The notes: a model not told the origin generated them from the sequence alone. DNA of 64,000 nucleotides from Nitrospirota bacterium (GCA_021789935.1 JAJYIR010000007.1:11050-75049); one strand, 5' to 3'; counted from the first letter of the stretch, positions 2 through 51,050 are shown. Numbers and translations are program-made.

Positions 2-310
2 GATAAGGGCTACTTCAAAAATGAGGCCGGCGAGGGAAGATTCATCGCCCTCTGGCCGAGGGCCAACGGGATACTTGATCCCCTGTTGTACAAAAGAAAC
101 AGAAGGATAACCGTGGCCGGAACACTGGCCGGAACCAAAAGCGGGAAAATAGGCTCCGCAAACTATGTGTTCCCGGTTATAGACGTGCAGCAGATATTCC
201 TTTGGAAAGAAACATATTATTATCCTCCTTCCTACTATTACTATCCGTATTACCCGTATGATTACTGGTATCCCTACGGCCCCTATCCGGGTTTTGGTGT
301 CTATTGGTGA
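2..310 (+). CDS. Slp-like outer-membrane lipoprotein paralog, 3' part (5' end outside window), with Tyr/Pro-rich C-terminal tail
   Basis: The frame is open from the window edge to TGA 308-310. ...EGRFIALWPRANGILDPLLYKRNRRITVAGTLAGTKSGKIGSANYVFPVIDVQQIFLW aligns colinearly with the next gene. The tail is KETYYYPPSYYYYPYYPYDYWYPYGPYPGFGVYW. Confidence 0.6.
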   Translation, partial: DKGYFKNEAGEGRFIALWPRANGILDPLLYKRNRRITVAGTLAGTKSGKIGSANYVFPVIDVQQIFLWKETYYYPPSYYYYPYYPYDYWYPYGPYPGFGVYW

Positions 311-981
311 TGCCAGGTATGTGCCGCTTTTTATTTTTTGTTTTTTTTCCAAAAAGGGCCTTCCCGGCTGTTTGGCTGTTTCTTCCTTTGGCGCTTGCTG
401 CCTCCTGCGCCGTAAGCCCCATAAAGAGCGTTTATCTTGAGCATGGAATAAGAGATGTCTCGATACCGGCGATACAGGAAAACCAGAACCTGTACAAGGG
501 GAGGCTTTTCCTGCTGGGAGGCATAATACTGAACACCCAGGTCACGGATGAGGGCTCTCTGGTGTATGCCATATATGTGCCTGTAGACTCGGAAGGGACT
601 CCGATGCCGTTGCAGGCGGCGGGCGGCAGGTACATAGCCCTGTGGCCAAAGTCTTACGGTACGCTGGAGCCGTCGATATACAAGAAAAACCTGGAAATAA
701 CGGTGGCAGGCGAATTCGTGGGCCTTCGCAAAGGCAAGCTGGACAAGGCCGATTATGACTACCCGGTGTTCAGGATAGAGCAGATATACCTTTGGCATGG
801 AGAGCAGTATGCGCCCGCCTACTATTACCCGTATTACTATTATGCGCCCTACTATTCGTATCCTTACAATTACCCCTATTACAACTATCCATATTATTAC
901 AACTCTCCGTATTACAGATACTATAATTATCCGTACAACAGGCCGTATTACCGTCCCGGGCCATATTACTGGCGCCGCTGA
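310..981 (+). CDS. Slp-family outer-membrane lipoprotein with about 60-aa Tyr/Pro/Asn C-terminal tail
   Basis: Signal peptide plus lipobox (LPLALAAS-C). The core GGRYIALWPKSYGTLEPSIYKKNLEITVAGEFVG...YDYPVFRIEQIYLW resembles Slp/YeaY as I recall it. The ATG at 310 overlaps the upstream stop (TGATG); TTG 304 and GTG 307 are alternative starts. Confidence 0.65.
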   Translation: MPGMCRFLFFVFFPKRAFPAVWLFLPLALAASCAVSPIKSVYLEHGIRDVSIPAIQENQNLYKGRLFLLGGIILNTQVTDEGSLVYAIYVPVDSEGTPMPLQAAGGRYIALWPKSYGTLEPSIYKKNLEITVAGEFVGLRKGKLDKADYDYPVFRIEQIYLWHGEQYAPAYYYPYYYYAPYYSYPYNYPYYNYPYYYNSPYYRYYNYPYNRPYYRPGPYYWRR

Positions 982-1010
982 GCGGGAGTTTTTTTCAGGA
1001 AACCGCCGCC

Positions 1011-1040
1011 TTGACAACCCCCGGGCCAACTTCTTATACT
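1011..1040 (+). promoter_or_regulatory. sigma-70-like promoter candidate upstream of ABC ATPase genes
   Basis: TTGACA (1011-1016), then 17-18 nt, then TATACT (1035-1040). It lies about 120 nt upstream of ATG 1161. Confidence 0.4.
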
Positions 1041-1103
1041 CAATCCTGGTATGCATTCACCGCTTAGAGGCCTCTATGCCTTTTCAGAAGCTCCAAACCA
1101 AAG

Positions 1104-12482: not shown

Positions 12483-14135
<1,653 letters not shown>

Positions 14136-14177
14136 GAAAGACCTCGCTGGCGGCAAGTATCAAGCCGCAAGGCACAA

Positions 14178-17217: not shown

Positions 17218-18318
17218 CTATGAAGAGACGTAGTCGTTCACCCTATCAGGGTCAAAAGCCGGGGAACCGAGCACCCCGTGGATGAACCGGAAGATGAGGC
17301 CGCGCCCCTCATTTCCAAGCCGGGGATAGAACGCCGGGTTTGCGACCACCACCGCCCTGAAGGCGAAAAAAGGCGCAACCACGCCTAAAACGGCCTCGTC
17401 CCCGGTAAGCCTGATGTATTTTTTAAAAAACATTTTCAGCCCCTCAAGACAGGCCCCCTGCACCTTCCCGTGCCGCTGGACGGAATAGAAAATAAAATTT
17501 ATCGCCAGGGCGGCAAGGTCGTCGGCGGCCTCGCCCCAGGGACCGCGGCTCCTGTCCAGAAGCGTAAGCTCAAGGCGGTTTTTTCCCCTTTTGGGCTTAT
17601 CCCGGGCGGGCCGCTCGTGGAACCAGATGTTGCCGGGGTGGAAGTCCCCGTGGATGCGGCAGAGCCTCCGGTAAAAAAGCCCGCCCTTAAGCCTGGCTCG
17701 CCAGTCTATGCATTTTTTCTCTATTTCGGCCATTTGGACATGCGTTATCACGCCCCTGGGGTAGGCATCGAATACCCCCATCAGACATTCTCCGTGCCCT
17801 ATGATGTCCCGAAGCTTCCTCAGGTAGAGGGCCCTTGAGGTCTTCCTGAGCGAATGGACCTCCGTCAGATAGGAGGCCATGCGGTTTATTTTTAAACGGT
17901 CGCCGGGCCCCAGGGCTTCCATTCCCACAAGCCGCTCCAGGTCCTCAAAATAGCTTTGCCCGGCAGCCTTCTTCATAAGCAGGTAGTATTCCTTTCCTCC
18001 GCCTATGGACTGAAGTGACCCTCCTGGCCTCAGGCCAACGACGTCCAGGGCCTCTATATGGTTTGGAAGGGAGTTATAGGAGTCCAGCGCCAGAAGGAAC
18101 AGGCCTGCCCGGTCGGAAGGATAGTCGTGCCCCAGCCCGGAGGGCCTTACGGATTTTATGACGAACTCCTCCGTGCCCCGGACGCCTCTCGCACGGATAA
18201 GCCAGCCCTCGCCATGCACCCCCCTGCCAAGGGGTCTCATTTCAAGGACCTCTTCCATTCCGAAGGCCTTTAGGTATGTTTGAAGGGCGCTTCGTTTTAT
18301 TTTTTGGGCCCTCTCCAT
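17218..18318 (-). CDS. Phosphotransferase (APH/choline kinase-like) family protein
   Basis: The HGDFHPGNIWF catalytic loop followed by LLDRS, plus a kinase-like N-lobe (FVIKSVRP). Confidence 0.65.
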   Translation of the reverse strand: MERAQKIKRSALQTYLKAFGMEEVLEMRPLGRGVHGEGWLIRARGVRGTEEFVIKSVRPSGLGHDYPSDRAGLFLLALDSYNSLPNHIEALDVVGLRPGGSLQSIGGGKEYYLLMKKAAGQSYFEDLERLVGMEALGPGDRLKINRMASYLTEVHSLRKTSRALYLRKLRDIIGHGECLMGVFDAYPRGVITHVQMAEIEKKCIDWRARLKGGLFYRRLCRIHGDFHPGNIWFHERPARDKPKRGKNRLELTLLDRSRGPWGEAADDLAALAINFIFYSVQRHGKVQGACLEGLKMFFKKYIRLTGDEAVLGVVAPFFAFRAVVVANPAFYPRLGNEGRGLIFRFIHGVLGSPAFDPDRVNDYVSS

Positions 18319-35563: not shown

Positions 35564-36004
35564 TTACAGGCTTTTTATCAGATACACCAGAAGGAGTATC
35601 CCGGTTGTCAGGACAAAGGCGGTCAGCGCGGCATCCAGGGCCGCCTTCGGGTGATATCTCTGCTCATCTAGCTCCTTTCCCACTTCCCTGTATCTTATGA
35701 AGGCGAAGACGGCAAGCAGGATGCCAAAAACCACAAACACTATTCCAAGGGCGGCGGAATATCCGGGGGTACGGAAAGTGCTAATCGCCTTGCCTGCCTC
35801 CGCGCCCGACGGCTTGCCGGCGGCTTTTAATCCGATCTTTTCCAGCAGAACAAGCTTTTGAATGAAGAAGGCAAACCGCTCGAGAACGAAGCCGAATGCC
35901 ATAATCCCTATGCTGGTCCTTATCCAGGCCAGAAAGGTGCGCTCGTTGGCCAGGTGTTCCCGGCTGTGGTCCTGCCGGTTTTTTTCAGTGCCGCTTTCGT
36001 TCAT
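35564..36004 (-). CDS. DUF202 (YidH) family membrane protein
   Basis: LANERTFLAWIRTSIGIMAFGFVLERF plus two further TM segments. Confidence 0.8.
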   Translation of the reverse strand: MNESGTEKNRQDHSREHLANERTFLAWIRTSIGIMAFGFVLERFAFFIQKLVLLEKIGLKAAGKPSGAEAGKAISTFRTPGYSAALGIVFVVFGILLAVFAFIRYREVGKELDEQRYHPKAALDAALTAFVLTTGILLLVYLIKSL

Positions 36005-36009
36005 TTTCT

Positions 36010-36903
36010 TTACTTTTCTGTTTTTATTGTTTCTGTTTTTGTTTTTGCCTGAGACAAAGATAAAGAACCTATAAAATCCTTAAGCGCGTCCTCCCATTCC
36101 CTGGGCCTTATGCCTCTCACGCTTTCAAGCGGGGACCAAAGGGGCCTTCTCGCTTTTGTCTTATAAGCGGTATGGGGGACGGGGGTGATATCGGCCTTAA
36201 GGCCTGCCATCGCCGCTATCTTCACCGCAAACTCATACCAGCTGCAAACCCCTCCGTTAGAGGCGTGATAGAGGCCGAAGGGCCGCTCCTCGGTTATGAG
36301 CCGCCAAATCTCTTTTGCCGCGTCGGCGGCGTTTGTGGGCGACATGTGTATGTCGTCCACTATTGTCATGGGTTCGCCATTTCCGGCCTTATTGAGTATG
36401 GTGTAGACGAAGTTTCCGCCCTTGCCGCTTGCCCCCGCCCTGCCGTACAAGCCTGCCAAGCGCACTATGTAATGGCTGCCCGTAAAATTTTCCGCATAAA
36501 GCTCCCCGGCGTACTTCGATATCCCGTAGGTGCTTAGGGGATTGGGAGTATCGTCTTCGTTGTAGGGGGAGGGTTTTTTGCTTCCGTCGAATACGTAATC
36601 CGTGCTGATGTGCACAAGGACGGCCCCGGTTTTCCTGGCCGCCAAGGCAAGGTTTTTAACCCCCAGGGCGTTCACCCTGAAGGCCGCCTCCGCGTCGTCC
36701 TCCGCATCGTCCACCCTCACGTAGGCTGCAGTGTTTATTATCACATCCGGGTGCAGCCCGGTTAAAAAGGTTTTTGTTTCCTCCGGGCGGGTGATATCCA
36801 GCGTCTCCCTGGCAAGCGGGACCAGCTCAACTTCTCCGGGTTTGGCGGCCACTATCTCCGTGCCCAACTGTCCCCCCGGGCCGATAAGGGCAACCTTCAG
36901 CAT
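36010..36903 (-). CDS. rfbD: dTDP-4-dehydrorhamnose reductase
   Basis: GPGGQLG Rossmann motif, TDYVFDG, YGISKYAGE (YxxxK). Located in an operon with rfbABC. Confidence 0.92.
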   Translation of the reverse strand: MLKVALIGPGGQLGTEIVAAKPGEVELVPLARETLDITRPEETKTFLTGLHPDVIINTAAYVRVDDAEDDAEAAFRVNALGVKNLALAARKTGAVLVHISTDYVFDGSKKPSPYNEDDTPNPLSTYGISKYAGELYAENFTGSHYIVRLAGLYGRAGASGKGGNFVYTILNKAGNGEPMTIVDDIHMSPTNAADAAKEIWRLITEERPFGLYHASNGGVCSWYEFAVKIAAMAGLKADITPVPHTAYKTKARRPLWSPLESVRGIRPREWEDALKDFIGSLSLSQAKTKTETIKTEK

Positions 36904-37943
36904 CAGGAGAAGCTACTAAAACCTTTTCTGGTCTTCATCTCTTCAAAACGCCCCCTGAGCTGTTCCGTAAAGGCCTTTGCCTCCGCCTCCTTTTTAAAAA
37001 GCCAGTCACTCATCTGGCGGTACCATTGCACGGTGCGCTCGATCCCCTCTTCAAAACGGACGCGCGGTTTCCAGCCGGTCTCCTTCTCTATCTTGCAGGT
37101 GTCCACGGCGTACCTGAAATCATGCCCGGGCCTGTCCGCAACAAAGGTTATAAGCTCCTCTCCCTTGCCGAGAAGCCGGAGGATGGCAGATATCACGTCC
37201 CTGTTCATCTTCTCTTCGTTGCTGCCGATGTTGTAGGTTTCCCCCTGTCTTCCCGCCTCCAGGACGCTCATGACTGCCTCTGCGCAGTCCTCCACGAAAA
37301 GCCAGGTCCTTATGTTCTCTCCCTTCCCGTACATCGGGATTTTTTCGCCCCGGAGGGCTTTCGCTATCACCAGAGGGATCAGCTTTTCCGGGTACTGCCA
37401 GGGGCCGTAGTTGTTCGAGGGTCTGATGGTGGTTACCGGAAGCCCGTAGGTCTTCCGGAAGGCCCGCACGAACATGTCGGCAGAGGCCTTGCTTGCGGAA
37501 TAAGGGGAGTTTGGAAGCAGGCAGCCTGTCTCCCGGAACTTTTCCTCCCCGGCTGAAAGCTCCCCGTATACCTCATCCGTGGATATGTGTATGAACTTTT
37601 CAATCCTGTGCTCAAGCGCCAGCTCCAGCAGGTTTTCCGTGCCTATGACGTTTGCCCTTATGAAAGATGCGGGGTCAAGTATGCTTCTGTCCACATGGGT
37701 CTCGGCGGCAAAATGGACGATGGCCTGCGGTTTTTCGGCGCTGAATATCTCAGCAAGGCGAGTCTTGTCCGCGATGTCCGCCTGGTGGAAAGTTATTTTT
37801 TCATTGATCTGCTCCAGCCTCTCCAGGTCCCCGGCATAACTCAGGGCGTCTATGCAGACAGGGTTAAAAGCTCCCTTACGGACGGCAAGGCGGGTAAAGG
37901 CGCTCCCTATGAACCCGGCCGCGCCAGTCACTATCACCTTCAT
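36903..37943 (-). CDS. rfbB: dTDP-glucose 4,6-dehydratase
   Basis: VTGAAGFIGS, HISTDEVYG, PYSASKASADM, and DRPGHDFRYAVD. Confidence 0.95.
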   Translation of the reverse strand: MKVIVTGAAGFIGSAFTRLAVRKGAFNPVCIDALSYAGDLERLEQINEKITFHQADIADKTRLAEIFSAEKPQAIVHFAAETHVDRSILDPASFIRANVIGTENLLELALEHRIEKFIHISTDEVYGELSAGEEKFRETGCLLPNSPYSASKASADMFVRAFRKTYGLPVTTIRPSNNYGPWQYPEKLIPLVIAKALRGEKIPMYGKGENIRTWLFVEDCAEAVMSVLEAGRQGETYNIGSNEEKMNRDVISAILRLLGKGEELITFVADRPGHDFRYAVDTCKIEKETGWKPRVRFEEGIERTVQWYRQMSDWLFKKEAEAKAFTEQLRGRFEEMKTRKGFSSFS

Positions 37944-37965
37944 AGAATTTCTCCCACTATTGTCT

Positions 37966-38538
37966 TCACCGGGCTTTTCCCCCTCCGTAGATGAAATTGT
38001 TCCGGGCCTCTTTCAAAGAGGGCAGATGAGCGTCTTTGTCCGAGACAACCGGGTTTTCCAAAGGCCATTTTACTGAAATGTCCGGATCGTTCCAGATTAT
38101 GCCCCCATCGTGCTCGGGGGAGTACTCATCCGTGGCGGAATAAAGGACGTCCGTGTCATCTTCGAGGGTGGCAAACCCGTGGGCGAAACCGGGAGGGACC
38201 CATAGCATGAACATATTGCCGCCGGAAAGCTCAGCGCCCACCCATTTGCCGAAATAAGGCGAACCCTTCCTGATGTCGACGGCCACGTCGAATATCGCTC
38301 CCCTGGACACCCTTACAAGCTTCCCCTGCGCCCTGGGGTCCAACTGGTAATGCAGTCCCCTTAAAATTCCCCTCCTGCTCCTTGAGTGGTTGGCCTGGGT
38401 TAAATCCAGGTCTATGCCCGCGTTCAGGAACTCCGAGCGCTTGTAGGTCTCAAGAAAAAACCCCCGTTCGTCTCCGAATACGCGTGGCTGTATCAGGACA
38501 ACATCGGGAATGTCCAGTTTTTTAAAGGTAAACGGCAT
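37966..38538 (-). CDS. rfbC: dTDP-4-dehydrorhamnose 3,5-epimerase
   Basis: FGDERGFF, RGLHYQ, QGKLVRVSRGAIFDVAVDIR, and PPGFAHGF. ATG 38538 was chosen as the start. Confidence 0.95.
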   Translation of the reverse strand: MPFTFKKLDIPDVVLIQPRVFGDERGFFLETYKRSEFLNAGIDLDLTQANHSRSRRGILRGLHYQLDPRAQGKLVRVSRGAIFDVAVDIRKGSPYFGKWVGAELSGGNMFMLWVPPGFAHGFATLEDDTDVLYSATDEYSPEHDGGIIWNDPDISVKWPLENPVVSDKDAHLPSLKEARNNFIYGGGKAR

Positions 38539-38653
38539 GAAAGGCCCCGTCTTTTCCACATTTCATGCGTTGATTATACCCGAATTTTATTTAAAAAAAT
38601 ATTGTGGCTCTCATGTTTTCAAAGAGGTTTTTAATTCAGGAGGGGGAGGGGGG

Positions 38654-39559
38654 TCAGGCCATCAGGCCCTTTTGCGCGGCCTCATCACCTTTTGCCGCCT
38701 TGATGAGGTATTTCCCGTACTCGGTTTTTTTAAGGGTATCGGCCATTTCAAGCAGGGCCTCTTTCGTTATCCAGCCTTTGGAGAAGGCGATCTCCTCTAT
38801 GCAGCCCACCATGTAGCCGGTCCTGGTCTCTATGGTGGCTATGAACTTGCTTGCCTCAAGGAAAGAGTCATGGGTGCCGGCGTCAAACCAGGCAAAACCC
38901 CTGCCGATAGGGCTCACATGAAGAGAGCCCTTTTGCAGATATTCCTCGTTTACGCTCGTTATCTCAAGTTCGCCGCGCGCGGAGGGTTTTACCCCCTGCG
39001 CTATTGCGGAACAATTTTTATCGAAGAAATAAAGGCCGGTCACGGCCCAGTTGGATTTCGGTTTTTTGGGCTTCTCCTCAACCGAGATGGCCACCCCTTT
39101 TGAATCGAACTCCACTATGCCGTATCTTTCCGGGTCCTGCACGTTGGAGGCGAACACATAGGCCCCGCCCTCTTTTTTCATCCCGCGCACGGTCTCTTTC
39201 AGAAGGGCGGGTAGTCCGTGGCCAAAGAAGATGTTGTCGCCGAGTATCAGGCAGACATCCTGCCCCTTAATGAACTCTTTTCCTATAAGAAGGGCCTCGG
39301 CAAGGCCGTTTGGCTTTTCCTGGACTGCATAGGAGAACTTCAGGCCCAGGCGCTCTCCTGTGCCGAATATGCCTTTAAAACTCTCTATGTCCCTTGGGCC
39401 GGTTATAAGGAGAATGTCCTTTATGCCCGCAAGCATCAGGATGGAGAGGGGGTAGTAGATCATGGGCTTGTTGTAGACGGGAAGCAGGTGCTTGTTCAGG
39501 CATATCGTGGCGGGGTAAAGCCTTGTCGCGCTGCCCCCCGCAAGTATTATCCCCTTCAT
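38654..39559 (-). CDS. rfbA: Glucose-1-phosphate thymidylyltransferase
   Basis: [32 protein letters not shown], and LGDNIFFG. Confidence 0.96.
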
Positions 39560-39709
39560 GGGTGATATTTTACACGGGCCATGGCTTTTTGTTCAATTGC
39601 CGGTTGCTTTTAATCGGCTTCTGGTGGAGGCCCAGCGGAAGGCAACCCGGACGTTGTAGAATCCCGGGGGTTGGTTAAGAAAGTTCCCTCTAAGCTATAA
39701 TCAATCATC

Positions 39710-41284
39710 ATGCCCAAAGGGCTTACCCCTCATCTTAAAACCGCCGTAAAGGGCAGCACGCTTGTCCTCGCCTCTGCCATTGGGAGCAACCTGCTCTGGT
39801 TTTTCATAAAGGTCCTCATAGTAAGGAACACCACCACTGCCGAGTTCGGCATTTACACACTGGTGCTAACAGTCGTAAGCATTCTTACCGCGGTTGCTCC
39901 CCTGGGTATACCGTCAGGGGTTACCAGGTTCGTCTCCATTTACCAGGGGGAGGGTAAAGTGGAAGAGGCGGACGGCATGTCAAGGGCGGGCGTGCAGATG
40001 ATGCTGGTGCTGGGGCTTGCGGCCTTCGTTTTTTTATATTTCCTGGCCGGCCCCATAGCTAGGGACTTTTTTTACACGCCCGGGCTTGCGGGACCCCTCA
40101 GGACAGTTTCTGTCGTGGTCCCCATCATGTTATATGCGAGTGCCGTGGCCAGTGTGCTGATCGGCCGTGGCCTGATCGGGCAAAAGTTTTTGGGCGACCT
40201 TCTGAGCCCTGTCTTATATGCGGGCCTGCTGGGTGCGGCAATTTTTCTTCAGATGCGCCTCACGGGCATACTGCATGCGTATGTAATTTCCAGCATACTG
40301 GTATATGGGCTTGTGGCGGCCTACGGGTTCTGGAAGCTGGGGGGCGCGCCGCTTTTGCCTAAACGCGGGCAGAGGCACTGGGAGCTTCTGAAGTTCTCCA
40401 CCCCGCTGACGATCTCGACTATAACGTCCCTGGTCCTCGTGTGGGCGGACACGCTTATGATAGGCAGGTACATAAACGCGCAGGCTGTGGGCACCTACGG
40501 GGTAAGCGTTTCCATGGTAAAGCTTCTCCTTTTCCCTCTTTCCGCGCTTAGTTTTGTCTTTCTGCCCATAGCGGGAGAGATATTTGCCAAAAAGCAGATG
40601 GGGGAGCTCCACAGGACTTACCAGGTGCTCACCAAGTGGGTCTTTGCTGCCACCCTGCCAATATTCTTCGTCCTCTTTTTTTTCCCGCAGATGAGCATAA
40701 CCGCCCTTTTCGGGTCGCGCTTCCCGGAAGCCGCACTGCCCCTCAGGCTCCTGGCCCTGGGCTTCATGATGCACACCTTCTTCGGCACAAACGGGATGCT
40801 CTTAGTGGTGATGGGCTTTCCGAAAACTATCATGAAGATATCCGTGGCGGCGGCGGCAGTGAACATTGCCCTGAACTATATCTTTTTAAAAAGCATGGGC
40901 ATGGGGATTGCCGGGGGGGCGCTGGCGACTATGATCTCCTATATCCTTATCAATATCATGTATTCGGTAAAGCTTTACCAGCACAGCCGGATGCACCCCT
41001 TTTCGGCCTCCTATCTTAAACCCGTTGCCGGGGCCGCAATATCGGGGCTTCTCATATACGTTGTCGCAAAGAGCCTGCCTCTTTCCCTCTGGATGCTTCC
41101 GGTCTACTTCGTGCTTTTTACCGCGGGCTATGTAGCGAGCCTCCTTCTGTCAAGGAGCATCGAGGAGGAGGACCTTTTTCTTCTGGAGCGGGTGCTTAAC
41201 AGGCTGGGAGCCAGGCCTGCGCCTGTATTGGCGTTTCTGGAGCGGTTCGCGCCAAAAATTGCAAAACCCGGCGTCGATGTGTGA
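39710..41284 (+). CDS. Wzx-type oligosaccharide flippase (MOP/polysaccharide biosynthesis protein family)
   Basis: A 524-aa polytopic protein (about 12-14 TM segments) with the typical N-terminal KGSTLVLASAIGSNLLWF. Glycan cluster context. Confidence 0.8.
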   Translation: MPKGLTPHLKTAVKGSTLVLASAIGSNLLWFFIKVLIVRNTTTAEFGIYTLVLTVVSILTAVAPLGIPSGVTRFVSIYQGEGKVEEADGMSRAGVQMMLVLGLAAFVFLYFLAGPIARDFFYTPGLAGPLRTVSVVVPIMLYASAVASVLIGRGLIGQKFLGDLLSPVLYAGLLGAAIFLQMRLTGILHAYVISSILVYGLVAAYGFWKLGGAPLLPKRGQRHWELLKFSTPLTISTITSLVLVWADTLMIGRYINAQAVGTYGVSVSMVKLLLFPLSALSFVFLPIAGEIFAKKQMGELHRTYQVLTKWVFAATLPIFFVLFFFPQMSITALFGSRFPEAALPLRLLALGFMMHTFFGTNGMLLVVMGFPKTIMKISVAAAAVNIALNYIFLKSMGMGIAGGALATMISYILINIMYSVKLYQHSRMHPFSASYLKPVAGAAISGLLIYVVAKSLPLSLWMLPVYFVLFTAGYVASLLLSRSIEEEDLFLLERVLNRLGARPAPVLAFLERFAPKIAKPGVDV

Positions 41285-41344
41285 TAATTTTCAATAAATC
41301 AAAACACTATGTTGCGACTTTGGATGAAAACCTCCAGGATATAA

Positions 41345-42016
41345 ATGATCAAAAATTATAAAGACAACCGGCTCTATAAATTCCTGTTGAAATGGCGGAT
41401 TAAGTACGAGCAGTTAAAGACCATTAAGGAATGGGGGAAAAATGGCAGACCCGTTCCGCCGCCGCACATTATAAAACAAAGGAACCTCATCCGCTATGCG
41501 GAAAAATATCAGTTGAAAATATTAGTTGAAACTGGAACTTATCGTGGCGATATGATCGAAGCCATGAAAGGCCATTTTGCCCATATTTATTCCATTGAAT
41601 TAGAAAAAGTTCTCTATGACAGGGCCAGGGAACGCTTTAAAAAGGAGAGCCATATAGAATTGATCCATGGTGACAGCGGAAGAGAACTCGGGAAGGTGAT
41701 AAACAAATTAAATCATCCCGCTCTGTTTTGGCTTGACGGCCACTACTCGGGCGGGGAGACAGCCATGGGAGAGAAAGAGACACCTATCTACGAGGAATTG
41801 CGCCACGTCCTTGCCGATTGCAGAAGCTATGTAATCATAATTGACGACGCTCGTCTCTTTGGAAGTGACCCCGCTTATCCGTCTTTGCCGGAACTTGAAG
41901 GTTTCATCAGGGCGATGAGACCGGAAATGAAAATATCTGTCGCTGACGACTCCATAAGGGTAGAACCTAACGGTCTTGCCGGTCCGGCAAGACCGGAGTA
42001 TATTCAAAAATTGTGA
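41345..42016 (+). CDS. Putative SAM-dependent methyltransferase-fold protein
   Basis: The motif-I-like KILVETGTYRGD, then IYSIE and LFWLDGHYSGGET. The family is recognised only loosely. AT-rich gene. Confidence 0.5.
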   Translation: MIKNYKDNRLYKFLLKWRIKYEQLKTIKEWGKNGRPVPPPHIIKQRNLIRYAEKYQLKILVETGTYRGDMIEAMKGHFAHIYSIELEKVLYDRARERFKKESHIELIHGDSGRELGKVINKLNHPALFWLDGHYSGGETAMGEKETPIYEELRHVLADCRSYVIIIDDARLFGSDPAYPSLPELEGFIRAMRPEMKISVADDSIRVEPNGLAGPARPEYIQKL

Positions 42017-42048
42017 ACCAGATCTAATTTTCCCGAAAGTTCAAGGTG

Positions 42049-42834
42049 ATGGACACTATGAATTTTGTTAGAAGGCTGGCAAATAAGTTGTCTGCTTTTC
42101 TTGGCTGGATTGAAATAAGGCCCCGGCGCACTTTTACAGCCCTCGCCGCGTTTAAACACTACCTGACCGATCTTAACGAATTTTCATCAAGAACAAACTG
42201 GAAGGTTTTAAAATATCCTTGCTTGTTTGATCTCAACCAGGAAGCCGGTTCTTGCGGCGAGTATTTTTTTCAGGATATTTATGTTGCAAAACGCATAATC
42301 GAACAAAACCCCGGGCGCCACATAGATGTGGGGTCGCGTGTGGATGGATTTATCGCGCACCTTGCGTGTGTTCGAAGGGTTGAGGTTTTGGATATCCGTC
42401 CCATGATTTCAACGGTTAATGAAATAGATTTTCACCAAGCCGATATAACGGGTATAAGCGCCGATTGGTTTGATGCGGCCGACTGCCTGAGCTGCCTTCA
42501 TGCTCTTGAACATTTTGGGCTTAACAGGTACGGGGACGGCATAGATCCGGATGGATGGAAGGCCGGTTTTCAAAATTTGCAAAAAATTTTAAAAAAAGGC
42601 GGGGTTTTGTGGCTGTCGGTCCCGGTTGGTAAGCAGCGGGTGGAGTTTAATGCGCACCGTGTATTTGACCCGCAGACAATTTATAACTTCGCTTCAGGTT
42701 TGGGACTGGCCCTGCAAGAGTTTGCTTATCTGGATAAAGGCAAAATCACTGTATCGTCCGACCATGAAAATGATTTCCGCCGCCTGGCCAATGCAAATTA
42801 CAATTTGGGTATTTTTAAATTTACCAAAGGGTAG
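42049..42834 (+). CDS. DUF268-like SAM-dependent methyltransferase-fold protein
   Basis: HIDVGSRVDGFIAHLA..., LSCLHALEHFGLNRYGDGIDPDGW, and VLWLSVPVG. Confidence 0.6.
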   Translation: MDTMNFVRRLANKLSAFLGWIEIRPRRTFTALAAFKHYLTDLNEFSSRTNWKVLKYPCLFDLNQEAGSCGEYFFQDIYVAKRIIEQNPGRHIDVGSRVDGFIAHLACVRRVEVLDIRPMISTVNEIDFHQADITGISADWFDAADCLSCLHALEHFGLNRYGDGIDPDGWKAGFQNLQKILKKGGVLWLSVPVGKQRVEFNAHRVFDPQTIYNFASGLGLALQEFAYLDKGKITVSSDHENDFRRLANANYNLGIFKFTKG

Positions 42835-42849
42835 ATTTATATAATTTCC

Positions 42850-43710
42850 ATGATAATTTTTTTCGAGAGCGGACGGCTGGGCAATCAACTTTTTCAGTAT
42901 TGCGCCCTTAAGAGATTCCAGAAAAAGGGCGCCATTTTTCTTGTCGGGATGCGGTCTTTAAAAGACACGTTCCAAGGTATCGAGGTTGCGGGCGGCACAA
43001 GGCTGGCATACGGCATAGAACGGATCGTTCGCCGGCTGGGGACCGGGCCGTTTGACACACTCGCAAGAAAATTGCGGTTGATCGGCTATATTAAAGAGCA
43101 CAGAACGCCGAATGGCTCCGAATTCAGGATAAATAATGGACTCCTTAAAAATATCCATTATTGCGGCGTATCATATTTCCATGCGGAAAACATGGTTGAT
43201 CATTCTATTGCCTCGAAACTGGAGCTGAAAACGGAGTTGCTGGAATATGCATCGAAAATCTTCAAAAAATTCCCCCGCGACAGGACAGAAACCTTTTTCG
43301 TTCATGTGCGAAGGGGTGATTACACGCATTGGCCCTCCCCTGACGCGCCCGCAGTTTTGCCGTTAAGGTGGTATCGGCAGCAAATGGAGACGATCAGGTC
43401 CAGATGTGTAAAACCGTTTTTCCTGGTAGTTTCGGATGACGGCCCTTATGCCGCCGAGATGTTCGGCAACAACCCGGACGTATTCGTATCCCACGAAAGC
43501 GAAGCTGTTGATTTGGCCCTGATGTCCTTGTGCAGCGGCGGTGGGGTCCTTTCCGCCAGTTCTTTTTCCTGGTGGGCCGCCTATTTTGCTCGCAGGGCAA
43601 ACAACGATGCGTTTTTCATAGCGCCATTGTATTGGATAGGGCACCCATCGGGGAGCTGGTTCCCGGAGGGCATCGAAACAAGCTGGTTGAATTATGCAGC
43701 TGTCGAGTGA
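42850..43710 (+). CDS. Alpha-1,2-fucosyltransferase (glycosyltransferase family 11)
   Basis: GRLGNQLFQY at the N-terminus and the HVRRGDY motif. The GDP-fucose genes gmd and fcl are in the same cluster. Confidence 0.82.
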   Translation: MIIFFESGRLGNQLFQYCALKRFQKKGAIFLVGMRSLKDTFQGIEVAGGTRLAYGIERIVRRLGTGPFDTLARKLRLIGYIKEHRTPNGSEFRINNGLLKNIHYCGVSYFHAENMVDHSIASKLELKTELLEYASKIFKKFPRDRTETFFVHVRRGDYTHWPSPDAPAVLPLRWYRQQMETIRSRCVKPFFLVVSDDGPYAAEMFGNNPDVFVSHESEAVDLALMSLCSGGGVLSASSFSWWAAYFARRANNDAFFIAPLYWIGHPSGSWFPEGIETSWLNYAAVE

Positions 43711-43808
43711 TTATTAGAACGATTACTTTTGAAACCCGCGAACCCCGGCGCCGATGTGTGACAAGGGATACGGCGGGCAATTATTGCGGAGTCAATGACG
43801 TGCGCGCT

Positions 43809-44591
43809 TTACGTTTTTTTCCGGCAAAAGAAAACCTTTCGATAATTCGTAGCCAACGGATGTTTTGAAAGCCTTGGCGGAAACAGCACATGTTTGCTTC
43901 TTATGTCCCGGGTAAAATCGGACTCGTTGACGGCAGTCACGGAAAAGCCTTTTCTTTCGACAATTTCTGAAAAATCATCCCCAAATATCCTCAGATGATC
44001 GTACTGCCCGAAATGCTTTGTCCTGTCTTCAGGCGTAATAATAGCCGGATCCTCATAGGTCACCGGAAGACTGTCTTTCTGCGGCACAGTAAAGATCGCA
44101 ACACCCTCTGGAGATAAAATCCTGCGAATTTCATCGAGGGCCTTTTGGTAGTCCGGCACATGCTCAAGTACATCGAAAGCAATTGCGATATTAAAGCTTT
44201 CATTTTTTACGGACGGCATATCGGACATATCCAGCTTGAGGTCGCAGTCTTGCCGGAAATAATCGGCCGTTACATAGTGTGCGGCCTTTTTCCGAATATT
44301 TGAACTGACTATATCTTCCGGTGCGAAATGCAGGATATTCCTGCCATGGATAAGCCTGTCAAAGGACAGGCCCTCAATGTTCTGCAGGGCCGCAAAAAAT
44401 AACCTTTGCCGTATGCCGGAACCGCACCCCGGGCAGTTTACCTGGTAGTGCCATGTATCACTTGTAAAGTGGCGCCCTTTCCACCCGCAAATATTACACT
44501 GGACATTCCTGGGAAAAGACAGGAAAACCAGCCTGGAGCCATCGATTATTTTCCATGCGAAACGCCGCGCGGTCTTGCCTGGCAAAGACAA
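43809..44591 (-). CDS. Class I SAM-dependent methyltransferase with N-terminal Cys4 zinc-ribbon
   Basis: CNICGW...CPGCGS, then ILHFAPE, and FDVLEHVPDYQKALDEIRRILSPEGVAIFTVP. Confidence 0.75.
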   Translation of the reverse strand: MSLPGKTARRFAWKIIDGSRLVFLSFPRNVQCNICGWKGRHFTSDTWHYQVNCPGCGSGIRQRLFFAALQNIEGLSFDRLIHGRNILHFAPEDIVSSNIRKKAAHYVTADYFRQDCDLKLDMSDMPSVKNESFNIAIAFDVLEHVPDYQKALDEIRRILSPEGVAIFTVPQKDSLPVTYEDPAIITPEDRTKHFGQYDHLRIFGDDFSEIVERKGFSVTAVNESDFTRDIRSKHVLFPPRLSKHPLATNYRKVFFCRKKT

Positions 44592-44826
44592 ATCTTCCCC
44601 CCTCCTTTAGCTTTAAACGAATCAGATGAATTTCCGTTTGGCCAACTTTCAAAGCTTAATATAGCACAACGGCAAAAAAAAGCATCGAGGAAGAGGACCA
44701 TTTCCTTCTTGGACGGTTCGCACCTAAAATTGCCAAATCCAGCGCTGATACGTGAAAATCCGGGGTTGTGTGGCAAGCGTAAACTGTTTACTGCCGTAAC
44801 AAAAAAGCATTAGCGCCGGGGCCGCG

Positions 44827-45642
44827 TCACGGCAGGATCAGCAGACGCGCCGAGGGACCGCGGAGCCGGCCGGGCAACCCTTCAATCACCGGGAAAAAGA
44901 ACTTCGATCGCCGCTCTATTTTACGGGCTGCGGCCGCTGAAACCGGCCCAACCTTTTCATAGGCCCGGCCATAAGCCACTTTTTCCCCTGGCAGCAGATT
45001 CATGGCCCGCATTGCTTTGTCCCACGACCATCGGAAGTGAAATGTAGATGGCAGATGGCAGCGGATGACGGGCCAAAAGCAATTGGCAATCACAAATTGG
45101 CCACCCACGCGTAAATGCCTGGCTGCATGTTCCGCCAGCAAAAGCGGATCTAAAACGTGCTCAAACACATCTGTGGCCACCAAAATATCATATTCCCCAG
45201 TGAACTCTGGGATGAAGCGTACATTCTTAGTTTTTGCGGTTAGTGAGACAGCCATATTATGAGGGTGGGGCTCTACGATATGCACTTCGGTCTCAGGACA
45301 GCATTCACCTATCATTCGTGACAGTGTACCGTAGCCCCCGCCGAAATCGGCAATGCGGCGAGGTTTACTCCGGGCGACATATGCGCTGAACTCCTGCCGG
45401 TTTTTCAGGGATTCGGTATGCTGTTCTATAAATAGGCCATTTAGCAGCCACACAGGATGTGAATAAAATTTGTTAATGCGCTCATCCACAATTTCCGGAT
45501 CACAACCGCATTCAATCCAGGCCTCATCCATCAAGGCCCACATGCGCTTTAGATCCGGAGCTTCCCGGTTATCCAGCACCCTTTCGAAATACGACCGCTC
45601 TGCGATGGAAAGATCACAGCTTATATTCATAAAAAATATCAT
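44827..45642 (-). CDS. Class I SAM-dependent methyltransferase
   Basis: IADFGGGYGTLS (motif I) and ATDVFEHVLDPLLLAEHAARHLRVGGQFVI. ATG 45630 is an alternative start. Confidence 0.72.
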   Translation of the reverse strand: MIFFMNISCDLSIAERSYFERVLDNREAPDLKRMWALMDEAWIECGCDPEIVDERINKFYSHPVWLLNGLFIEQHTESLKNRQEFSAYVARSKPRRIADFGGGYGTLSRMIGECCPETEVHIVEPHPHNMAVSLTAKTKNVRFIPEFTGEYDILVATDVFEHVLDPLLLAEHAARHLRVGGQFVIANCFWPVIRCHLPSTFHFRWSWDKAMRAMNLLPGEKVAYGRAYEKVGPVSAAAARKIERRSKFFFPVIEGLPGRLRGPSARLLILP

Positions 45643-45740
45643 CCGTGCAGGGTGCGCTTATATGTGCAACTATGACTAAGTCTATGAGACTGGTTTTTAC
45701 CAGCGCTTTTTTTTGCCTCATTGAATTTCCTCTTTATCCT

Positions 45741-46556
45741 TCAGAACTCCTTCGGGACGCCAGGATAGAAGATTCTCCTGTAAAGCTTTGCGATGAAGCT
45801 AAAACCTGTCTTTCTCAGGAAAAGCCCGGCTTTTTGCTCAAAAGGGATGAAAGATATCCTGTACAGATAGCCTCCGTAAACGCCTAACCTGTTATAGCCA
45901 TAATGCAGAGCGAGCCGCTTTTTTTCTCTCACACATTCATTTTGCTGCCGGTAGCTGAGCCCCCCCAGCCTCATTGCCGCAATAACGCGGTTGATATAAT
46001 GGAACTTCACTCCGTTTTTGATGTACCTCAGAAAAAGGTCATGGTCCATGGCAATGCGGTATGAGAGGTCAAAGACTCCGTGCCTGTCATAGATGGCCTT
46101 TCTCACAAACACTGTGGAGTGCAACACCGGTATCTCCCAGGCGGAGCTCGCGGGATTTTTTGGCGGGCTCACTATATAGGACGCTCCACCATCCACGTTC
46201 AGCATCCTGAGGTCGCCGTGCACCACGCCGATCCCGGGGGCCTCCGCAAAAGCCTTTACGGCGGCACTTATGGCCCCCGGCTCATAATAATCGTCGGAAT
46301 GTATTATGCCAACTATCTCTCCTGAAGCCATCCGGATGCCCTTGTTCATGGCATCGGCAATGCCCTTGTCCGGTTCTGATACCCACTTGGCTATTTTTTT
46401 TTCGTATTTTTTGATTATATCCAGGGTGCCATCGGTTGAGCCGCCGTCCACAATGATATATTCAATGTCCGGATAGTCCTGGCCAATTACGCTCTGGATT
46501 GTCTGCTCCAGATGTTTTTCGCTGTTGAAGGTAATGGTTATTATGGAGACGAGCAT
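45741..46556 (-). CDS. Glycosyltransferase family 2
   Basis: VSIITITFNSEKHLEQTIQSVIGQDYPDIEYIIVDGGSTDGT and HSDDYY (the DxD region). Confidence 0.9.
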   Translation of the reverse strand: MLVSIITITFNSEKHLEQTIQSVIGQDYPDIEYIIVDGGSTDGTLDIIKKYEKKIAKWVSEPDKGIADAMNKGIRMASGEIVGIIHSDDYYEPGAISAAVKAFAEAPGIGVVHGDLRMLNVDGGASYIVSPPKNPASSAWEIPVLHSTVFVRKAIYDRHGVFDLSYRIAMDHDLFLRYIKNGVKFHYINRVIAAMRLGGLSYRQQNECVREKKRLALHYGYNRLGVYGGYLYRISFIPFEQKAGLFLRKTGFSFIAKLYRRIFYPGVPKEF

Positions 46557-46562
46557 TGAATA

Positions 46563-47849
46563 TTATACTTTACGGTTTGGGCGATCACTCGTGATCGATT
46601 CGTATAACGTAAGGTAGCTCTTAGCCAGCACATCCATGGAGTAATCCTCAAGGGCTTTTTCCCTGGCGGCCTCTCCGAGGGCCTGCCTGCGCCGCTCGTC
46701 TTCGAGGACCCACTTTATGCCTTGGGCGAGGTCTTCGGAGTCCATATATTTTGCCAGAAAGCCGTTTTTCATGTGTTCCACCATATCGGGAACTCCGCCT
46801 ACGTCAAAGGCCGCCACGGGGGTGCCGCAGGCCATGGACTCCATTATCGTATTGGGCAGGTTATCCCCAAGGCTGGGGAGAACGAAAACGTCCGCACAAC
46901 TGTAAAGGACAGACATGGAAACCTCGTCCGAAAGGGCCCCGGCAAATACGGTTTCGAATGGAAACCTTTCGTTTCCTTTCGAATGGCCGGCCCCGAAAAT
47001 CAAAAGCATATAATCCTTTTGGCCTGAAGCAATTTCCTTTAAACGATTGATTGCCTCAAACAGGTAACGGAAACCTTTTCTCTTGTCGCTTGTGCCCCCG
47101 GCCGCTCCGAAGAGAATTATTTTTTTATCTTCTGGAAAATTGAAAACAGACCTCGCGGTGTTCTTTTCGGCGGGCTTGAACACGCCGGTATCCAAGCCGT
47201 TCGGGATGATTTGCACGGGGCGCCCTGATAAAAGCGCGCTGTCCTTAACGCGGTTGCCCAGCCAGCCCGACGGGGTAACTATGTGAAGATTTAAATCCGC
47301 ATACGCCCTTTTTTTCCGTCTGAAAACCTTTGCGGAAAGGTCTCCGGCTCTGGAGGAGCCGAGCTGCGGGCAGGCGCCGCATGCCGCCTTGTACTTCCCG
47401 CACTCACCGGCATAGTGGCAGCCACCAGTGAAGGCCCACATGTCATGAAGGGTCCAGACCACCGGCTTGCCTAGCTTGGCGAGGGAGGCGATATTGCCTA
47501 TGGACATGAAGCCGCCAGTGGTCCAGTGCAGATTGATGATGTCCGAGTTTTTCAACAGCGGGAAATTCATGCGCCTTCGAGCCCATGCCGGATGAAAAAG
47601 CGGTTCCTTGCGGGCATAGAACTTCAGGGGCAGTCTGTCCAGGTGGCCGGAATTTCTCGCTGCAAACATTCCTTTAAGGCTCTCTGGCCCGTGCACAGAG
47701 GGATCATCGCACGTCTTCATGTCCACGACCATCGCCGATTGTGCTCCGGCCTTGTTTAGCGCCATATGCAGGCGGAAAGCCGCTATTGCGGCCCCGCCCA
47801 GCTTGTCATATTTACTAAGGTGAGTTATATTCATGACCTGTTCCGGCAT
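46563..47849 (-). CDS. Glycosyltransferase family 4 (GT-B, GT1/GT4 type)
   Basis: C-terminal motif VLPSLGDNLPNTIMESMACGTPVAAFDVGGVPDMV (EX7E-type). ATG 47834 is an alternative start. Confidence 0.85.
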   Translation of the reverse strand: MPEQVMNITHLSKYDKLGGAAIAAFRLHMALNKAGAQSAMVVDMKTCDDPSVHGPESLKGMFAARNSGHLDRLPLKFYARKEPLFHPAWARRRMNFPLLKNSDIINLHWTTGGFMSIGNIASLAKLGKPVVWTLHDMWAFTGGCHYAGECGKYKAACGACPQLGSSRAGDLSAKVFRRKKRAYADLNLHIVTPSGWLGNRVKDSALLSGRPVQIIPNGLDTGVFKPAEKNTARSVFNFPEDKKIILFGAAGGTSDKRKGFRYLFEAINRLKEIASGQKDYMLLIFGAGHSKGNERFPFETVFAGALSDEVSMSVLYSCADVFVLPSLGDNLPNTIMESMACGTPVAAFDVGGVPDMVEHMKNGFLAKYMDSEDLAQGIKWVLEDERRRQALGEAAREKALEDYSMDVLAKSYLTLYESITSDRPNRKV

Positions 47850-47901
47850 GCTGAATTAATATATCCCAATCGTTACTTAATTATTACTTATGTCGGCAAA
47901 G

Positions 47902-48834
47902 TCATTTAATCCCGATTTTAACCAGGAAATTATACAAAATGCCTTTTAACTCCGAGGTAAATGTAGTATTTGGAAAAAGGTTTCTTTCAGTAAAAGTGTC
48001 AGCCTCTGAATCTCGCAGCAGAAAAGGCGGATGAATCAGCGGGAATTCCATGGGTTCGGTTTTCATGGCGGAAAATATGTTTTCCCCCTTCGTGTTAGTC
48101 GCGTATTCACCGAACCCAATATTGGATACTAGGTTTACGTTCGGCAAAATGGTTAAAGCCCCGTGCTGCCAGCAAGTAAAAGTCCACCTGTAATCCCAAT
48201 GGTTTCTTTTCCCTGTGTATATATCATTAAAAATTCCTGACCAATAACGGACTGCGCGCTTATCATCGAGGAAATCATGCAACCATCCGCCATCCCTGAT
48301 TTCCGGCCATGCTTTCATGCCTGCATCATAATTTTTCCAGGCGCGCCTCCATGTAGCCCAGCCCCATATATGGGTGTACCTGGAAAAATAATAACTGTAC
48401 GCGGTCCTTTTTCTGCCGAACCGGAAATTATCCCCGCTGAGCATGGCAACGCGCTCATCATCCCTGTATCGTTCCAGCAGTTCCTCACAGAAGCGGAAGA
48501 AGGTGGGGTGGGGGAAGCAGTCGTCCTCAAGAATGATTGCCTCTTCTACTTGATTAAAAACCCAGTCCAGCCCGCTTGGGAACCGGCGCGGGCCGCCTAT
48601 ATTCACGTCGGAAAAATTGGTCAGCACCTCGCAGTCCCAATCTACCCGGGTGATTATCGCACGTGCGGCGGCGCAGGCTTGGGCCTCACCCGGCTTGTCT
48701 TCCCTGGGGCCGTCGGCCACTACAAACAGCTTTGGAGGTTTTGCCTTAGCTATTTCAAGAAAGACCTTTTCGGTCGTATCAGGCCGCTTGAAAATAAAAA
48801 AGGCTACCGGGGTTTTGAGCTTCCAGTCACTCAT
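47902..48834 (-). CDS. GT-A fold glycosyltransferase (GT2-like, HlpA-like family)
   Basis: VAFFIFKRPDTTEKVF...LFVVADGPR...AIILEDDCFPHPTFF resembles sequences annotated as GT2-like / hemolytic protein HlpA-like. This is from memory. Confidence 0.6.
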   Translation of the reverse strand: MSDWKLKTPVAFFIFKRPDTTEKVFLEIAKAKPPKLFVVADGPREDKPGEAQACAAARAIITRVDWDCEVLTNFSDVNIGGPRRFPSGLDWVFNQVEEAIILEDDCFPHPTFFRFCEELLERYRDDERVAMLSGDNFRFGRKRTAYSYYFSRYTHIWGWATWRRAWKNYDAGMKAWPEIRDGGWLHDFLDDKRAVRYWSGIFNDIYTGKRNHWDYRWTFTCWQHGALTILPNVNLVSNIGFGEYATNTKGENIFSAMKTEPMEFPLIHPPFLLRDSEADTFTERNLFPNTTFTSELKGILYNFLVKIGIK

Positions 48835-48981
48835 CTTGTAGCCCTGCTGTAATAGTGCAGCCCTTGAATATCAAAATATTAGTCTTTTTCGCCAGAAGCC
48901 AATAACCTTTTTAGCCCTGAATCCTTTATAAAAAGAAGCATACCTTTGTTTCTGTAGAGTATATAATTCAAAGGGATTCTG

Positions 48982-49677
48982 TTATGGTTTAATCCCTCCT
49001 ATCGGGGAAATAGCATCAGAAAGCCTTTTGAACTTAAAATCCTTGAAAAACAGAGAGGTGCATAATGTATACGCGTTTATGGGACTGAAACCGCAAAAAT
49101 CCACCTGGTTAAAACCAGCCTCTCTCAACATCCTGCAAGACTCGGCGTTCCAGTCCGAATTGTCAAGGATGATCAGACTATTTTCTTTAAGGAATCCTGG
49201 GGCCAGCCTTGCACAATTTTCTCTGCCATAGCCCATATATCCGTCGATTACTATTACATCAAACTTTTTGCCCTGGTTAGAAATAGCATTTGTATATTCT
49301 TTGTCTTCAGCAAGAATGAGCTTCGAATTTGCCGGTTTGTTTTTACTTATCTTCTCAAACCATTCGCGGTTATGTTCCACGCTTGTAACATCCTTGCTTC
49401 TACCCGCCCAGAAAAGTGTCGAATTTCCCGACCCCCACTCAAAAACAGTCTTATCTGAATAATCGAATTGCTTGATATACTCAATGGCGGGATATGTATA
49501 CCAAGGTACCGGATTGCCGGCTTCATCAATTGAGGAATTTTTTCTTACGCTATTATATTGGCCGTAGTTTCTAGCCAGTATCTCAAAATTTCGCCACTGC
49601 ACCCCATAGCGCTTCGGAACGATTCCCCAAAAAATTGTCCATAACTGGTTTTTCACTGTATTAAATTTCTTGTTCAT
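48982..49677 (-). CDS. Hypothetical protein with Rossmann/methyltransferase-like motif
   Basis: VFEWGSGNSTLFW (motif-I-like) and VIVIDG. A strongly AT-rich gene (about 33% GC in hand-counted lines). Confidence 0.4.
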   Translation of the reverse strand: MNKKFNTVKNQLWTIFWGIVPKRYGVQWRNFEILARNYGQYNSVRKNSSIDEAGNPVPWYTYPAIEYIKQFDYSDKTVFEWGSGNSTLFWAGRSKDVTSVEHNREWFEKISKNKPANSKLILAEDKEYTNAISNQGKKFDVIVIDGYMGYGRENCARLAPGFLKENSLIILDNSDWNAESCRMLREAGFNQVDFCGFSPINAYTLCTSLFFKDFKFKRLSDAISPIGGIKP

Positions 49678-49770
49678 CCGGGTTGCTCTTCCTTCATCGT
49701 ACGAGTAGCCCGGTTATCCTGGGATTAATTTTCAAGGGCGACAAGGCAGTTATCATTTTCTGTATGGCCC

Positions 49771-50955: not shown

Positions 50956-51050
50956 GACATTCTCCTGATTATGCTTTCAATCAGCAAAGCAAGCTTTTTC
51001 AACTCCTTATATTAACAAAATAATGAGTGAAATTTCATGTTCAGGACACT

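Follow-up and report, generated by a model that had tools for sequence, protein, structure and literature searches.

The stretch of DNA analysed here, which we call the window, is a 64,000-nucleotide segment from a Nitrospirota bacterium (GCA_021789935.1 JAJYIR010000007.1:11050-75049), read on one strand. At its 5' end lie two adjacent genes, gene 1 and gene 2, which encode lipoproteins of the Slp family whose folded cores run on into C-terminal tails composed very largely of tyrosine and proline. The tandem pair was first described in an earlier note made from the sequence alone, and its coordinates, sequences and paralogy held on translation, with 46% identity between the two proteins. The features of the pair are as follows.

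2-310, plus strand: gene 1, 3' part of the gene for a 183-amino-acid Slp-family lipoprotein (translation, Pfam Slp match), the rest lying 5' of the window
up to 205, plus strand: core of gene 1 (translation)
206-307, plus strand: Tyr/Pro/Trp tail of gene 1, 34 residues with 15 Tyr and 7 Pro (script count)
308-312, plus strand: TGATG overlap of the gene 1 stop and the gene 2 ATG, one base in common (sequence)
310-981, plus strand: gene 2, complete, a 223-amino-acid Slp-family lipoprotein (open reading frame (ORF), Pfam Slp match, identical protein on six contigs)
310-408, plus strand: predicted signal peptide and lipobox of gene 2, MPGMCRFLFFVFFPKRAFPAVWLFLPLALAAS followed by C, with Cys33 at 406-408 (read by eye from the sequence)
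451-795, plus strand: predicted OB-fold beta-barrel core of gene 2, residues ~48-162, ending at the conserved IYLW (AlphaFold2 (AF2), Foldseek)
796-978, plus strand: Tyr/Pro/Asn/Arg tail of gene 2, 61 residues (script counts, predicted local distance difference test (pLDDT) scores)
851-916, plus strand: imperfect in-frame tandem repeats within the gene 2 tail (Tandem Repeats Finder)

Both genes are Slp-family lipoproteins, each with a lipobox signal peptide, a core of predicted OB fold and an aromatic/proline tail. The Slp-like core that the earlier note had proposed was checked against Pfam Slp (PF03843, gathering threshold 22.5 bits), and both proteins scored far above it, gene 2 at 90.9 bits (E 6.7e-26) and the gene 1 fragment at 78.7 bits (E 3.9e-22). 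Neither matched any other Pfam family, SPOR (PF05036) included. All of the 27 closest database homologs carry PF03843, and one ortholog (P0004) is named "Slp family lipoprotein" by NCBI. The profile scores place the window proteins as diverged from the proteobacterial seed of the NCBIfam model TIGR00752, whose cut-off of 88.45 bits was reached by neither (gene 2, 67.7; partial gene 1, 49.1).

Gene 1 enters the window in frame 2 with its final 102 codons and stop, its C-terminal end being KETYYYPPSYYYYPYYPYDYWYPYGPYPGFGVYW and its last residues GFGVYW. Contigs carrying the identical gene 2 protein supply the missing 5' end, and the complete gene, read at L001:9051-9602, encodes 183 amino acids with a signal peptide and the lipobox LLAAC (…LLLAA, then Cys). 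Further paralogs had been suspected upstream; what lies there is the remainder of gene 1, preceded by the gene for a CitMHS transporter, so the locus holds exactly two. No further Slp copy or Tyr-rich stretch was found in any frame of the 64-kb window. By inspection, both genes encode a lipoprotein signal peptide with a lipobox cysteine, and in gene 2 this residue (Cys33, …LALAAS then Cys) is kept in at least 90% of homologs in the alignments. The residue after the cysteine (+2) is Ala in both proteins; the rule that a lipoprotein lacking Asp at +2 goes to the outer rather than the inner membrane is that of E. coli, and may or may not hold in Nitrospirota.

The core of gene 2 is, as modelled, an OB fold. 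AF2 gave it pLDDT above 90 with alignments of both 27 and 150 sequences, and Foldseek against the PDB returned OB folds only (SSB, Rim1, PriB, and the anticodon-binding domains of Asp-, Lys- and Asn-tRNA synthetases), while a sequence search found no solved structure for any Slp relative. A predicted helix at residues 15-32 corresponds to the signal peptide, and pLDDT falls below 50 over most of the tail (about 166-213) with either alignment. By script, the tail holds 29 Tyr, 11 Pro, 5 Asn and 5 Arg in 61 residues, which agrees exactly with an earlier hand count of 29 Tyr and 11 Pro at 796-978. At 48% Tyr over 61 residues, this composition is not due to chance. The repeats in the tail include a period-18 unit, TATTACAACTATCCATAT, which encodes YYNYPY (877-914), as well as periods 15 and 33.

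The combination of an Slp core with such a tail had first been taken as unfamiliar, on the premise that Slp proteins normally end where the core does. This premise did not hold, and the combination proved to be the family norm, in which only the degree is unusual here. To keep the tail from biasing the matches, we took just the gene 2 core (window 409-795) as the query against 1.84 billion representative proteins, and obtained 965 relatives at E <= 1e-3. Among the matches listed, 143 representatives had a core reaching the conserved C-terminal W, and all 143 of these listed relatives carry a tail after it, at least 12 amino acids long (median 39, range 12-250). Aromatic residues make up 25% or more of 93 of these tails, and YYY, PYY or YYP occurs in 68. 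Of the rest, many start as aromatic/proline sequence and then pass into an acidic or Gly-rich extension. The tails of E. coli Slp (…VWHLREVVNTTYNLWDYGYGAFWPEPGWGAPYY…) and YeaY are rich in W, Y, G and P, that of an Slp homolog from Fontimonas (Gammaproteobacteria) reads PYPYYYYYPYYYYP, and in both window tails the match to the Pfam Slp profile goes on for 24-27 residues, reaching position 152 of the 153 in the profile. The aromatic/proline tail is thus a hallmark of the Slp family, and this Nitrospirota lineage is its tyrosine extreme (43-52% Tyr). None of the 143 listed representatives reaches 29 Tyr or 47.5% Tyr, the maximum being 44%, and the highest counts are limited to the clade of the window (29 of 61 residues in the window, 29 of 59 in L008, 31 of 67 in L012). 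In the searchable literature we found nothing on Slp tails, on Slp as an OB fold or on Tyr-rich periplasmic tails, and no description of an aromatic/proline tail selected across the family. A scan of species genomes with a single protein returned two relatives only, and a search with the tail by itself, meant to reveal other families that carry it, gave no scorable candidates, which is probably an effect of low-complexity filtering. Another possibility, that the aromatic C-terminal end serves as a beta-signal like that of outer-membrane proteins or as a PDZ ligand, was unsupported, since 50 of the 143 relatives end in an aromatic residue and as many end in a basic one. One further relative, P0149, joins an Slp core to a segment resembling an Rce1-like CPBP intramembrane protease, and is probably a gene-call fusion or frameshift.

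Closer relatives show what is kept in the tail and what is not. The order CitMHS, Slp, Slp and two ATP-binding cassette (ABC) ATPases recurs in related Nitrospirota metagenome-assembled genomes (L008, L009, L012, L014 and L015), followed, where contigs reach, by a thioredoxin-like protein, AdoMet decarboxylase and phosphoglycerate kinase (PGK), and another close relative, L011, has a single slp gene of the gene 2 type. The two paralogs keep distinct tail styles: among orthologs of gene 1 the tails include Trp, most of them closing with …YW, and among orthologs of gene 2 they include Asn and Arg, most of them closing with …RR. In the latter, tails of 33, 46, 59, 61 and 67 amino acids are all 43-52% Tyr, and each of the five orthologs stays in frame and stops right after the Tyr tract. 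This persists over a divergence in which 38-60% of four-fold degenerate sites in the core differ. Every Tyr codon is a single transversion from a stop, yet five of five ortholog tails are open, for which the neutral probability is 4e-5 to 1e-10; between the window and L012, different codons underlie 23 of 47 identical tail residues. These sequence comparisons show that purifying selection keeps the composition of the tail and its open frame, while its exact sequence and length change fast.

At the strain level, the tail is also where change is concentrated. Between the window and L014, within a 90%-identity cluster, 7 of 183 tail bases differ as against 1 of 381 core bases (Fisher p=0.002), a hot spot that could reflect slippage, gene conversion or diversifying selection. 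The strain variant P0177 (L015) lacks 18 nucleotides (6 amino acids) in the repeat-bearing stretch of the tail, a length equal to the period-18 repeat, and we infer that slippage at short in-frame repeats, or their duplication, underlies the changes in tail length, the 18-nucleotide YYNYPY unit being one such repeat. A second strain difference lies at the start of gene 2.

328-355, plus strand: poly-T tract (328-350) and deletion junction between 354 and 355 (DNA alignment with L014 and L015)

L014 (1440-1560) and L015 carry 92 extra bases between window positions 354 and 355, and both alleles occur in several samples. In the long allele (proteins P0177 and P0179), a 55-nucleotide intergenic gap separates the genes, and gene 2 has its own ATG and a Lys-rich n-region (MRKKEKNKKK…) as in the orthologs. 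In the window allele, a short upstream ORF running through the poly-T tract (read as Phe) is joined to the hydrophobic region of the signal, giving the N-terminus MPGMCRFLFFVFFPKR over the first ~15 codons. Both the TGATG overlap and the odd N-terminus of gene 2 are explained by the 92-bp deletion. The translational coupling that had been proposed for the pair is therefore present in the window, as TGATG at 308-312, but is not a conserved trait, the gap being 16 and 34 nucleotides in the orthologs L008 and L009 and 55 nucleotides in the strain variants. Pairing of the poly-T tract with the A-rich insert of the long variant into an RNA hairpin was considered, and was no better than shuffled sequence.

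What replaces the tail in some relatives may bear on where it points. In five metagenomic relatives (P0032, P0033, P0036, P0059 and P0072), the aromatic tail gives way to an acidic linker of ~100-190 amino acids and a C-terminal SPOR match, which passes the Pfam cut-off (21 bits) in four of the five and scores 17.1 in P0059. No description of this Slp-SPOR architecture was found in the searchable literature. SPOR domains bind peptidoglycan in the periplasm, and the C-terminus of these relatives should therefore face the cell wall. About seven others (P0133, P0164, P0145, P0113, P0151, P0176 and P0081) have short hydrophobic tails resembling Gly-zippers, for example GIGIGIVGTF, PIGIGIGIVGTF and RFGVGVGVGRGW; such tails resemble the membrane-inserting motifs of other small outer-membrane lipoproteins. 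For the window proteins themselves, summing Wimley-White interfacial free energies gives strongly favourable values, -14.4 kcal/mol for the gene 2 tail and -11.2 kcal/mol for the gene 1 tail. In a survey by coarse-grained simulation, E. coli Slp and YeaY were among the lipoproteins with a reproducible membrane interface (PMC7139219), and Slp has been linked to acid and metabolite stress (PMC7231039).

The explanation we favour, by a modest balance of the evidence, is that the locus encodes a pair of Slp lipoproteins, each carrying a selected tail typical of the family that acts as a periplasm-facing, disordered tether. The tail would be an intrinsically disordered, "sticky" tether on the periplasmic side, whose tyrosines could hold the OB domain to the interface of the inner leaflet of the outer membrane, to the glycan strands of peptidoglycan, or to both. 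Such a tether might contribute to the cohesion of the envelope under stress, a role already proposed for E. coli Slp, and the two paralogs, with their distinct and conserved tail styles, would probably divide the labour or act together.

Several observations weigh against this explanation. The case from SPOR amounts to guilt by domain replacement, argued from five fairly close relatives of which one is sub-threshold. The Wimley-White sum has a family median of only -2.2 kcal/mol and is +1.4 kcal/mol for the whole tail of E. coli Slp, and because of this weak median and the unfavourable E. coli value, membrane partitioning is not obviously a family-wide property. The low pLDDT of the tail may stem from the difficulty that AlphaFold has with low-complexity sequence rather than from true disorder. 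The gene 2 allele in the window has an atypical, deletion-derived predicted signal peptide that may or may not be competent for export, and the gene neighbourhoods of distant relatives gave no shared functional clue beyond the close relatives. In addition, Slp of E. coli O157:H7 has been reported as an adhesin for host pIgR (PMC6561548, PMC13193606), and such binding, if direct, would mean that part of Slp is exposed at the surface.

One may go further and propose that the Slp tail is an autonomous, envelope-binding module, a disordered "tyrosine velcro" functionally interchangeable with SPOR, in which case the tandem pair would link the outer membrane to the cell wall as a tether of two parts, its reach tuned by rapid, repeat-driven changes in length. 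We regard this extension of the periplasmic tether as possible, and on balance doubtful.

Alternatively, the tails could be aromatic stickers that mediate homo- or hetero-oligomerisation or bind outer-membrane proteins, giving a higher-order assembly or a condensate on the inner side of the outer membrane, with neither lipid nor peptidoglycan as the partner. Low-complexity regions rich in Tyr and Arg drive multivalent association, and the conserved tandem pair has complementary tails (Trp and hydrophobic residues in one, Asn and Arg in the other) that could give cation-pi interactions. Judging from the nature of the Foldseek matches, OB folds commonly oligomerise, and the Gly-zipper-like tails of some relatives are of the kind that other small outer-membrane lipoproteins use for self-assembly. 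However, most relatives, as well as the close relative L011, have a single slp gene, and hetero-pairing therefore cannot be general. We consider this alternative unlikely as the main role of the tails, while giving it some real weight.

The periplasmic tether must also be set against the idea that the tails are exposed at the surface, where they would serve as fibres for adhesion or matrix anchoring, become cross-linked through dityrosine, or bind metals or minerals. The extreme Tyr content invites this idea, as does the reported adherence of E. coli O157 via host pIgR, and in some relatives, for example P0119, P0078 and P0143, the aromatic tail is extended by Gly/His-rich or acid-rich stretches similar to sequences that bind metals or matrix. 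The pIgR evidence, however, consists of pull-downs from whole-cell lysate and docking, with no mapping of topology (PMC6561548, PMC13193606). The relatives with a C-terminal SPOR put this end of the protein in the periplasm, which argues somewhat against exposure, and no signature of a surface-export route for lipoproteins was seen. Nor was a peroxidase, laccase or secretion partner found among the 20 long window ORFs scanned and the called genes of the syntenic loci, a scan that leaves much of the 64 kb uncovered; the sole redox neighbour is the thioredoxin-like AhpC/TSA protein. On this evidence, surface exposure of the tails is improbable.

That the tail might be neutral low-complexity sequence, drifting and expanding by replication slippage beside an OB core that alone matters, would fit its highly variable length (12-250 amino acids in the family, 33-67 in the orthologs), its rank as the fastest-changing part between strains, and its want of a confident AF2 structure. 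Neutrality is nevertheless very hard to reconcile with an open frame and composition that persist over saturated synonymous divergence (neutral probability at most 4e-5), with synonymous codon changes beneath identical tail residues, and with an aromatic/proline character common from Nitrospirota to Gammaproteobacteria. An artefact of frameshift or mis-assembly in the low-complexity region, which could be suspected because several frames are open there and an antisense ORF exceeds gene 2 in length, can be set aside with near certainty, since the exact 223-amino-acid gene 2 protein was called on six contigs (ENA/NCBI and Logan) from six different sample or run accessions with identical tail DNA, the five orthologs remain in frame with no earlier stop, and the antisense ORF has no family match; the tails are real, as the earlier note had supposed.

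That antisense ORF (331-1056, minus strand, 241 amino acids) was weighed as a true gene and rejected, as it has no Pfam match, and the frame that runs on from the Slp core and is kept in the orthologs is the sense one. The antisense frame is open because Tyr codons give no stops on the reverse strand, and its length, greater than that of gene 2, could lead gene callers astray. As to transcription, a near-consensus match to a sigma70-like promoter lies at L001:9017-9044 (TTGACT-16-TATAAT, 11/12), ~250 bases upstream of window position 1. Its -10 box ends only 6 nucleotides before the gene 1 ATG, and the Slp pair may therefore be transcribed as a leaderless mRNA. A second match, at window 1011-1040 (TTGACA-18-TATACT, 11/12), stands after gene 2 and ahead of the oligopeptide-type ABC ATPase genes downstream, which suggests that the Slp pair is its own transcription unit. 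A further candidate signal lies at the end of gene 2.

951-994, plus strand: stem-loop followed by T7 just past the gene 2 stop, a weak candidate for an intrinsic terminator (fold -14.8 kcal/mol)

The stem folds no better than shuffled sequence (z-score -0.03) and was not reported by the terminator scan, and an Rfam scan of the window gave no matches. Elsewhere in the window, two long minus-strand ORFs, at 12516-14156 (546 amino acids) and 17218-18318 (366 amino acids), have no Pfam match (E <= 1e-4); their neighbours are envelope-related, namely an RlpA-like DPBB protein, a rhomboid, a protease of the DegP/HtrA type and a VTT/PAP2 membrane protein. A polysaccharide biosynthesis cluster at ~36000-51000 (dehydratases/epimerases, a Wzx-like flippase and group 1 glycosyltransferases) is apparently unrelated to the Slp pair.

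As it stands, the annotation of the two genes is correct and ordinary, two Slp-family lipoproteins, with the observation on the tail at the level of the family as a by-product. If the reading of the tail as an autonomous module interchangeable with SPOR is true, it would for the first time offer a way into the mechanism of the Slp family, known since 1994. A tail found throughout the family and occasionally replaced by SPOR is a testable lead to Slp function, for which E. coli slp and yeaY are tractable, and the Nitrospirota tails, nearly half Tyr, would be the strongest natural reagents for binding tests.

Tyr-rich proteins cross-linked through dityrosine, such as CotC and CotU of the Bacillus spore coat, the plant extensins and resilin, are extracellular or at the spore surface and need oxidising enzymes. 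The window proteins share with them a very high Tyr content in low-complexity sequence of the cell envelope, but their sequence motifs are different, and in the genes scanned (those of the syntenic loci and the 20 long ORFs of a 64-kb window much of which lay outside the scan) neither an oxidative enzyme partner nor an extracellular location is indicated for the Slp pair. Disordered, Pro-containing tethers are well known in the periplasm, for example the Pro-rich rods of TonB and TolA and the linkers of LpoA and LpoB, which are charged or polar (Glu/Lys/Pro, Ser/Gln) and joined to a folded end domain. The gene 2 tail is likewise punctuated by proline, lacks confident predicted structure and belongs to a membrane-anchored protein, and its 61 residues, if extended, would be long enough to reach the peptidoglycan layer. 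In contrast to those linkers, it is nearly half Tyr and is itself the terminus.

The Slp-SPOR relatives have the same core (44-50% identity in four, 34% in P0059) and an extension that begins after the same conserved W, but place a linker and SPOR where the window proteins have an aromatic tail; they are informative about the orientation of the C-terminus and not about its chemistry. The closest known systems are Slp (b3506) and YeaY (b1806) of E. coli (PF03843/TIGR00752), which likewise have a lipoprotein signal peptide with a lipobox Cys and are of similar size (~180-220 amino acids). Their genomic setting is different, as the Nitrospirota pair lies in no acid-fitness island and adjoins a CitMHS transporter. 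The core of E. coli Slp is homologous at 24% identity, with shared GG, GR(F/L), DP, TV.G, Y..P and (V/L)W motifs, and in both E. coli proteins, as in those of the window, the core is followed by a tail, there aromatic and rich in Gly and Pro. The gene 2 tail is longer (61 amino acids), without Gly or Trp and with Asn and Arg, and Tyr makes up 44-48% of the tails in the window proteins compared with 11% in E. coli Slp.

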